From a virus, in the IMG/VR virus record IMGVR_UViG_3300046501_000132, positions 106,685-170,684 of that record: DNA of 64,000 bases; one strand, given 5' to 3'. The notes under the pieces are model-generated. The model was not told the origin of the DNA. It made no database searches and saw nothing but the letters and a program-made list of their open reading frames with translations. A program made the position numbers and the translations under genes. The first letter of the stretch is position 1, and every line of letters starts with the position of its first letter. Positions 46,042 through 47,856 of this stretch are shown here, piece after piece.

Positions 46042-46809
46042 TCAATTGCCGATTTTCGGCGCCGGTGCATTCGTGCCGACCTGCTTCGACAGGTTGACCT
46101 TATCACCGTATTCCAGGCCCTGGCTCAGCGCGTTGTTGGACTTGTTCACCACATTGAGCTTTTTCTTCTTGACCTGGATACCAAGAACCTTTTCGATGAA
46201 GGAATCGTTGGCGTCAGCTTCAGTCTGGTAGACGTTGGATAGCACCAGGGCGGTTCCGGTCGACACCGGGGAGGGTTCGTCATCCTCCACGTCCTTCAGG
46301 TAATCTTCCGTCTTGGTTTCCTCTGCTTCCTTTCGCAGAGCAAAGCAGCGCTGGCTGATCTTCAGGGCCGCGCCGTTGCGGAAAGTGGTTCCCCAACCGG
46401 CATTGCCACCGGCGTCGCGTTGAGCCCGGTTCGATTCATCCGAAACGCTCTTGATCGCGTAGAGCGTCATTTCACGAGCGGTGATCGCGTTGCTTTCCAG
46501 GCCCACGAAGTGGAAGTTGTACTTCTGCTTCCCTGGAACCTTCGTGCGAAAGAACTTGCAGAAGAACAGTTCGGCAATCGCGTGTCCGATCATCGTGCGA
46601 TACGGATCAGGGAATTGCTCCAGGAGCAACTCGTCACGATCCTCCTTGTTCTCGATGCTGACCTTGTCCATCGACAGATTGTGCTTGGTCATCAACTTCA
46701 GGGCCATCCGCATCGCGGTATCACGTTCAGCTTCCGCGCCAGCAGCGCCATCCTTGGCGTGGTTCAGCAGCTTTTGGATCTTTGCGATGATTTTGTTTTG
46801 GTCCGACAT
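46042..46809 (-). CDS. DUF2786-domain protein
   Basis: KIIAKIQKLL..A....EAERDTAMRMALKLMTKHNL. Confidence 0.8.
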   Translation of the reverse strand: MSDQNKIIAKIQKLLNHAKDGAAGAEAERDTAMRMALKLMTKHNLSMDKVSIENKEDRDELLLEQFPDPYRTMIGHAIAELFFCKFFRTKVPGKQKYNFHFVGLESNAITAREMTLYAIKSVSDESNRAQRDAGGNAGWGTTFRNGAALKISQRCFALRKEAEETKTEDYLKDVEDDEPSPVSTGTALVLSNVYQTEADANDSFIEKVLGIQVKKKKLNVVNKSNNALSQGLEYGDKVNLSKQVGTNAPAPKIGN

Positions 46810-46942
46810 TTTTATTACCCTTTCGCGGTCTGTTGTGTTAGGTTATCGCCTTACTATGTTTCGTTCAGCGATGTAATAATTATAGTCGCGTATTCATGAT
46901 TCGTCTAGTTCTTTTCTGACGAAACTTTCAGACTTTTACCTA

Positions 46943-46971
46943 TAGACTTTTCTGCAGGATGGGTATATAAT
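46943..46971 (+). promoter_or_regulatory. promoter for ORF-free transcript
   Basis: TAGACT-N17-TATAAT, divergent from the DUF2786 gene. Confidence 0.75.
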
Positions 46972-46976
46972 AAAGG

Positions 46977-47297
46977 GTTCATGGTGGTCGGTATTCAGAC
47001 GGTAGCATCATGAAGGTTGTTTCGGCTTACTATGGGATCGGATTAGGCCAAACCCGCAATCTAGGGCAATATGCTCGGTGTGACTCAGGGTATCCGACTG
47101 ACCAGACGTTTGGTTAGCGTAAGTGAGTGTGACTTGTAGAGAACAACGTTTGTAATCTCTACGCCTGACTGGCTCCGATACTGGGACCTGAGGCTTGATG
47201 AGCTACTGCCTTTGCTGGCAGGGCCATCTTTCGCCTTTCCTTCACCGTCCAGGGGATAAAAGAATAAAGCCCCTAGCGGATTAGGCTTAGGGGCTTC
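46977..47297 (+). ncRNA. putative large structured non-coding RNA (~280-320 nt), family unknown
   Basis: promoter, no ORF, at least eight nested stems with G-U pairs, ends at hairpin AAGCCCCTA...TAGGGGCTT. Confidence 0.65.
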
Positions 47298-47398
47298 TCA
47301 GAGAATCAGGGTTATTAGAAAGGCTACCAGACGTTCAGATAGCGTAGGAAAGGCTAGATAGACCGCTAGAGCGAGTCCCGCCAGTAGACCAACAACGC

Positions 47399-47746
47399 TC
47401 AAGCCGGAACCCTCCGACGATGATAACCTGAGCTAGTAGCGGCTTGTTCAGACTGAAACTTTAAGTCGGCCAAGCGAATCTTATCCCGCTCGATAACCCG
47501 GAACATTTCCTTGATCTCCGCGATACGAGGCTCACCAAAGAGTAATTCCTCAATATCGTAATACGCGATCACTTGGGAATAGTTCATGATCGCTTCGGGG
47601 TAGACGGAAAAGGCTGTCTTGTAATTTCCCTTTCGGATAGCCTCTTCAAACTGTTCTTGGTAGAGTTTCCCGCTCTCCAAGTGGTCAGCTATTCGCTGCT
47701 TGAGTTGGTCCCTGACGGAACCGATAAGATTTGATATTTCAGACAT
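47399..47746 (-). CDS. hypothetical protein
   Basis: GGAG RBS, TATACT upstream. Confidence 0.6.
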   Translation of the reverse strand: MSEISNLIGSVRDQLKQRIADHLESGKLYQEQFEEAIRKGNYKTAFSVYPEAIMNYSQVIAYYDIEELLFGEPRIAEIKEMFRVIERDKIRLADLKFQSEQAATSSGYHRRRVPA

Positions 47747-47856
47747 GGTATATCTCCGCGCTGCTGGGCGCGTTTAGTATAGCCCTGAAAGCTCATGAGA
47801 GTCTATACGTAAAAACCCCTAGCGGGTTAGGCTAGGGGCGTCGTGACTTGGTGAGA

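Follow-up and report, generated by a model that had tools for sequence, protein, structure and literature searches.

On the minus strand of the phage DNA, a DUF2786/DUF7168 gene and a gene for a 115-aa protein flank a locus that is most likely a plus-strand gene for a ∼285-nt, heavily knotted noncoding RNA, called copy A here. The features of the locus are as follows.

46042-46809, minus strand: DUF2786/DUF7168 gene, flanking copy A on one side
46879..46907, minus strand: divergent early promoter of the DUF2786/DUF7168 gene (promoter scan)
46943..46971, plus strand: sigma70-type early promoter, TAGACT-17-TATAAT (-35 TAGACT, 17 nt, -10 TATAAT; promoter scan)
46976..47260, plus strand: RNA gene, copy A, ∼285 nt, with ends inferred from alignments A2/A3/A5 and model R1
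47257..47297, minus strand: terminator hairpin and U-tract of the convergent gene 47399-47746 (sequence, repeat comparison)
47399-47746, minus strand: 115-aa gene, convergent to copy A and flanking it on the other side

The window, the whole stretch of DNA analyzed, is 64,000 nt long and corresponds to C1:106685-170684 of a 170,684-bp virus record; the genome has 25 tRNA genes. The UvsY of the source phage shares 38–41% identity with its counterparts in Delftia phage PhiW-14, Acinetobacter nACB2, and Vibrio VAP7-like phages, from which we infer an uncultured, large, lytic, Ackermannviridae-like phage. The last ∼175 bases of the contig nearly repeat its first bases, suggesting a circularly complete genome, though it is classed as linear. 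Among the tRNA genes, the listing at C1:52280-52355 holds one with a CUA anticodon, which may suppress amber codons, and two calls of Ser type whose anticodons are unusual. Outside the window, on the minus strand at C1 ∼55.7–56.0 kb (L057) and downstream of a coiled-coil-like gene, is a second, unrelated ORF-free structured element with A-rich short repeats and no match to Rfam or to models R1 and R2. A search of DNA runs found DNA of the phage in rhizosphere metagenomes; one metagenome contig from a DNA run is identical across 47001-47392 and may stem from the source campaign. Among RNA runs, none was listed as holding the phage, and the match in the single one tried fell outside copy A.

The copy A promoter is the near-consensus plus-strand promoter already noticed in the initial annotation, and is one of 33 sites in the genome that fit the early-promoter pattern of the phage. 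The annotation had also reported no ORF, and the only ones found to overlap copy A encode 22–35 aa; these were rejected as the product, being this small and having indels between copies. No Rfam family reaches its gathering score. As had been proposed, the RNA is neither a tRNA nor a tmRNA: these, including two-piece tmRNA, and Y-RNA were rejected, with no ARAGORN call, Rfam match, acceptor stem, or T arm and with T-loop-like letters that are a strand of a pseudoknot (PK1, below). Rfam models of ROOL, GOLLD, OLE, raiA, HEARO, SRP, and RNase P, whose hallmarks the annotation had likewise found missing, do not match copy A RNA. The hairpin at 47268-47297, previously taken as the last part of the RNA, is mainly the terminator of gene 47399-47746, because its U-tract is on the minus strand and its sequence matches another minus-strand terminator, at 47815-47839, with 87.5% identity. 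The terminator hairpin (47257..47297) may also weakly end copy A RNA.

Copy A was correctly described as stand-alone but it is not unique, as two paralogues are found elsewhere in the genome (blastn of the genome, model R1).

C1 ∼64.4–64.7 kb, minus strand: copy B
C1 ∼15.5–15.8 kb, plus strand: copy C

Model R1 has exactly three matches in the phage genome, and these are copies A, B, and C (pairwise identity of 53–59%; A-B 59%, A-C 56%, B-C 53%). In related uncultured phages, six further copies occupy the loci of A, B, and C; L006, L015, L020, L022, and L052 come from motif scans, and L046 is the second family copy on a 117-kb fragment (G003). Outside its training set, R1 matches L046 at 100.7 bits and L052 at 94.2 bits. 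The A-type locus is beside the DUF2786 gene and an AAA-ATPase cluster, the B-type locus is between uvsW and antirepressor/uvsY, and the C-type locus is divergent from rnh (RNase HI) and a gp55-like gene, each syntenic in related phages. Identity across phages is 77% for A-L022, 72% for C-L046, and 69% for B-L006, and a tree of the copies sets the B-type apart at a support of 0.97 and the C-type at 0.997, with weak A-type grouping for L020. The three copies are long-diverged and kept at fixed loci across related phages, implying that their role is under selection. Eight of the first 15 motif matches and eight of nine genome matches had nothing else in common with the family and were set aside as chance; protein-seeded locus searches found no new copies, and blastn of cultured phages with copies A, B, and the Bilophila element described below gave chance matches only.

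An early-class promoter equivalent to that of copy A is upstream of the other copies, and a CTAAGTA resembling a late promoter is present in the leader of copy B as well. No terminator ends the B-type copies, which continue into downstream genes. Copies A and C each have their own promoter followed by a convergent terminator and no downstream sense gene, and a riboswitch or leader role is therefore rejected for both. Convergent hairpins similar to that of copy A are also downstream of copy C, L022, L046, and L052.

Covariation was measured on seven sequences and 71 pairs, with the fold derived from the same sequences and L046 and L052 held out. Across the seven, 92% of cells are paired, 40 of the 71 pairs have double changes, and the covariation score is 0.605 versus 0.248 when shuffled and ∼0.1 when slid (reached in 0 of 500 shuffles). 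Both held-out copies retain every core helix, PK1 again being perfect, and an unbiased column scan recovered PK0, PK1, P4, Px, P5, and P6, each perfectly paired and covarying. The elements of the fold, all on the plus strand, are listed with the evidence for each.

46978-46986/47006-47014, plus strand: P1 hairpin, double changes in 7 of 9 pairs
46987-47005, plus strand: L1, the 19-nt loop of P1, near-invariant in the alignment
47002-47005 (in L1) with 47030-47033 (in the P2 loop), plus strand: PK0 kissing helix, 100% paired
47024..47049, plus strand: P2 hairpin, whose loop gives PK0 and PK1 strands
47038-47043 with 47092-47097, plus strand: PK1, 6 bp, perfect in 7 of 7 with three compensatory columns
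47053-47055/47088-47090, plus strand: P3, invariant in the family, enclosing the invariant CCCGCAAUCUA segment and P4
47064-47076, plus strand: P4 hairpin inside P3 (covariation)
47083-47087/47124-47128, plus strand: Px, 5 bp, crossing P3, 100% paired, double changes in 4 of 5 pairs
47098-47117, plus strand: P5 hairpin inside Px (covariation)
47118-47123, plus strand: linker CGUAAG inside Px (covariation analysis)
47136-47162, plus strand: P6 hairpin, then a short hairpin P6b, GGCUCCG, and UAY, to 47181
47171-47177, plus strand: invariant GGCUCCG (alignment), followed by UAY
47191-47236, plus strand: P7 long hairpin, weaker on the automatic alignment (65–86% of cells paired)
to 47255, plus strand: terminal element with invariant CACC (47243-47246), the terminal hairpin read by eye

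As covariation shows, the compact core is a pair of kissing hairpins, P1 and P2, locked to an H-type pseudoknot, with P4–P7 and the CACC tail added. The ∼300-nt structured RNA of the initial annotation is thus real, at ∼285 nt, but its fold was wrong in the center: none of the three pseudoknots was in it, and they replace its long-range arm, which is not conserved (61% of AGGGCA/TGCCTT and 67% of GCTC/GAGC pairs kept, as a mean over six homologues). All the stems that it quoted exist where it placed them. By the same measure, TTCATGGTG/CATCATGAA (91%), GGCTT/AGGCC (87%), CTGACCA/TGGTTAG (93%), and GTAGAGA/TCTCTAC (98%) are well kept, whereas GGTTG/CAATC (10%) and CTCAGG/CCTGAG (28%) are not conserved. 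GTATC/GATAC keeps 80% of its pairs, but PK1 (6 bp, 100% paired) uses the letters of its 5′ strand.

Folding energy separates the full interval only modestly from shuffled controls (z of −2.5 with the terminal hairpin, −2.2 on the opposite strand) but is no better than shuffled once the terminal hairpin is removed (z of −0.6); for that reason, the case for the structure is made by covariation and not by folding energy. Tetraloops are sparse in a census meant to tell RNA from single-stranded DNA. Across the family alignment, helix letters vary freely and loops are invariant, which fits a binding surface and not a guide or coding sequence. A guide RNA was rejected, as copy A has hardly any 5′ leader and none of the classes showed a loop of its own. 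Hetero-oligomer pairing between copies was also rejected, as pseudoknot strands are complementary within each copy.

The RNA was called uncharacterized, and its paralogues, homologues, promoters, and compensatory changes uphold a plus-strand phage RNA, but one with a distant catalogued relative. Betaproteobacteria-1 RNA (RF02932) is the only weak Rfam match, over the 5′ part, at 21.8 bits against a gathering cut-off of 49.4. Homologues also score below the cut-off (22.6 bits; L022, 25.7 bits), and RF02932 is the top Rfam match at the homologous places in G000 and G003. True members, taken as L035, L053, L054, and L063 at 65–100 bits and L055 by blastn, were compared with the family. P1, PK0, P2, PK1, P3, and Px are in the same crossing order in four of them when checked by hand, and the three helices of the RF02932 model are present in order in the copy A family as P1, P2, and Px. 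Covariation for PK0, PK1, and Px is also found among 68 viral RF02932-type sequences, whose consensus extends ∼100 nt past the Rfam model. In this 3′ extension, 46 of the 68 have GGCTCC followed by YCACC (shuffled mean of 0.04); GGCUCC and CACC are the two invariants in the 3′ half of the triplicated family. Member L063 has the CGUAAG linker and a GUGG/CCAC kiss, as do C-type copies. A single topology descriptor detects all nine family copies and two of four RF02932 members, one of which was unseen when it was written, and its shuffled control, 4.2 Mb of DNA, gave one match. The other two members and the Bilophila element escape it. An extra descriptor match at C1:102540 was rejected because it looks like coding sequence.

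Copy A RNA was nevertheless not filed inside RF02932, on account of its score, the missing invariants, and failed reciprocal profiles. The RF02932 invariants GGCGAAG and GAACG are absent from the triplicated family, which has GCAAUCUA and P4 in place of the first and P5 and CGYAAG in place of the second. Against RF02932 members, R1 gives an E of only 1.6, at P1 of two members, and the 3′-domain model R2 gives an E of 4 in L055, with no crossing between subfamilies; an nhmmer profile of the 68 sequences does not detect the triplicated family.

An uncatalogued element in Bilophila prophages (L005, L014, L016-L018, and L028) is a further homologue. It has a near-identical L1, all core helices plus P5, the motifs GGCUCC and CACC in the same order, and an R1 match at 27–28 bits, and its sequence after L1 aligns to the family at z of 2.6–3.3. 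It differs in having a longer 5′ region, in being missed by R2, and in being a single copy that heads the early rightward operon of a temperate phage and adjoins the repressor. Over 151 genomes of the family of the Bilophila genome, R1 found only the known copy. A HEARO RNA (137 bits) is at L005:3373-3587 in the Bilophila phage, ∼1 kb from the homologous element. Adjoining Bilophila prophage tRNA genes, at L028:4747-4823 and L016:471-537, are CACC-loop hairpins like the terminal element of the family; these are weak (E of 0.1–0.2) and may be chance.

Topology and motif order suggest that the triplicated family, the Bilophila element, and RF02932 very probably form one superfamily. The triplicated RNA is best read as a new, large subfamily, a distant and longer relative of the function-less Betaproteobacteria-1 RNA that would link RF02932 and the Bilophila element. 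The Betaproteobacteria-1 motif was reportedly described in the survey of Weinberg et al. 2017, although the main text of that paper (PMC5737381) leaves it unmentioned, and a literature search returned no papers on either the motif or RF02932.

Most RF02932-type relatives lie within early operons; 39 of the 68 are just downstream of a same-strand primase gene, many within 10–30 nt, and some precede nin-like genes. For bench work, an RF02932 member is available in a cultured phage, AP1 of Acidovorax. Across loci L064-L143, two direct repeats in the 3′ extension covary with identical letters (columns 129/154/177, 132/180, and 136/183), which suggests alternative pairings. At L055:1945-2165, an RF02932-type RNA is on a Burkholderia chromid, and none of the neighboring ORFs is a phage gene; that record also has a second place. 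At L054:1678-2250, upstream of an RF02932 member, are a cluster of five tRNAs and a Sec-like tRNA call, and a GenBank ORF is annotated over the RNA itself. Other stretches occupy the post-primase slot. L186:1050-1440 (minus strand) is ORF-poor, stem-rich, and without RF02932, immediately after a primase gene; a 12-nt word and a P7-like stem are common to it and the Bilophila element, with an overall z of only 1.7. L187 and L190 also have uncatalogued noncoding stretches in this slot, and L190 aligns to copy A at a z of 3.3.

The explanation that we favor, with somewhat less than even confidence, is that the RNA acts in trans, as a shaped ligand whose partner early in infection would be a conserved machine of the host. 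Conservation of the promoter suggests that host sigma70 polymerase would transcribe the RNA from the phage early promoter. The invariant unpaired surfaces L1, CCCGCAAUCUA, GGCUCCG, and CACC would bind the host machine, with RNA polymerase or a nucleic-acid-sensing defense protein as leading candidates, and the three ancient paralogues may give dose or cover target variants. The stand-alone copy on the Burkholderia chromid, outside an evident phage context, counts for action in trans. The source phage, the Bilophila phage, and the examined parts of two RF02932 phages have no partner gene in common, a result that favors either a host partner or no partner at all; within the genome, blastn detected no extended complementarity to phage mRNAs. 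An antitoxin mimic, as initially suggested, finds no support, with neither repeats nor an Rfam antitoxin match. Against action in trans, the position of RF02932-type sequences just downstream of primase genes suits a cis role, as do the unterminated B-type copies. Function may differ between subfamilies, as their profiles do not cross-detect. A bolder proposal, which we regard as doubtful, is that the superfamily of three-pseudoknot phage RNAs has one conserved job; in its strongest form, the RNA would be a replication priming or licensing RNA or a new large ribozyme, with the lytic phage using three specialized versions.

The placement of RF02932-type copies beside primase genes also speaks for a rival reading, in which each copy would be a promoter-driven origin, with a transcript that primes or loads the replisome through an R-loop and three dispersed origins in the genome. 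The promoters at the copies, the divergence of copy C from RNase HI, and the location of copy B between uvsW and uvsY fit such a role. However, RF02932-type RNA is absent downstream in four loci picked by primase similarity (41–50%) and is therefore not needed by the primase module. None of copies A, B, and C adjoins a primase gene; a Toprim_2 search of the phage genome was blank, and its own primase gene was not located. There is no AT-rich unwinding element, weak G-skew (0.01–0.17) and a pyrimidine-rich 3′ end disfavor R-loops, no skew switch falls at copy A, and one RF02932-type copy is on a chromid, making priming an unlikely role. We consider quite unlikely a cis element, either a put-like antiterminator acting on its own polymerase or a nuclease-blocking knot that stabilizes downstream RNA. 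The Bilophila homologue heading an early operon beside the repressor, RF02932-type copies preceding nin-like genes, the alternative pairings hinted at in the 3′ extension, and B-type copies leading into downstream genes all suit it. Yet the downstream sense genes or terminators expected of a put-type element are present for B-type copies and temperate relatives and absent for A and C, from which read-through would give antisense RNA, and the ∼70-nt, two-stem put RNA of HK022 is far simpler.

The order PK1a-P3a-[P4]-Pxa-P3b-PK1b-P5-linker-Pxb is similar to that in the core of the lariat-capping ribozyme, P15-P3-P7-P8, and together with many invariant unpaired bases could indicate a self-cleaving or RNA-processing ribozyme with a nested double-pseudoknot core. 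This is improbable: Px runs for 5 bp without interruption and covaries freely, and it has neither the bulge nor the G-C pair of a P7 that binds guanosine; none of the Rfam families of ribozymes or introns comes even to an E of 10; and there are no exons or interrupted gene. Several scattered copies and the lack of a partner gene would also be expected of a selfish or neutral dispersed repeat, a nonautonomous mobile element. But positions are conserved between phages though copies are only 56–77% identical, no terminal repeats are seen by eye, and strict compensatory change implies long selection, so that such a repeat is extremely improbable.

Phages are known to carry only a few classes of large multi-pseudoknot RNA, most of them without a function. 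The covariation-supported fold connects a lytic T4-like lineage with two orphan motifs of temperate phages, and the copies that stand alone behind a promoter of their own allow a direct test of action in trans against action in cis. Relative to Betaproteobacteria-1 RNA, loop-end motifs are similar, but that RNA has a 120-nt model (∼220 nt with the extension) versus ∼285 nt in the phage family, lacks the extra hairpins P4, P5, and P6, has the reverse P3 polarity among its members, and occurs as one copy after primase versus three stand-alone units in a lytic phage. T4 replicates from dispersed R-loop origins, and ColE1 RNA II folds during transcription and stays hybridized as an R-loop that primes replication. 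The phage RNA is likewise promoter-dependent, dispersed, and near rnh and uvsW/uvsY, but it lacks an AT-rich unwinding element or G-rich clamp, is rich in pseudoknots, and often has a terminator hairpin at its 3′ side. The lariat-capping (GIR1) and group I core, for which a P15/P8/P3 junction has been described (PMC4436661), has similar nesting, with three helices around a pseudoknot; the phage RNA differs by having no guanosine-site helix, P4-P6 domain, exons, or Rfam match. ROOL, GOLLD, and OLE are large multi-pseudoknot RNAs of bacteria and phages, the first two phage-borne and without a known function or protein partner (PMC12286853). The phage RNA is half to a third their size, has no Rfam match, is triplicated, and is outside the tRNA cluster (C1 50–58.6 kb). 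It is like them in being large and multi-pseudoknotted, and they provide a precedent for large phage RNAs of unknown function that build RNA-only assemblies (PMC12286853).
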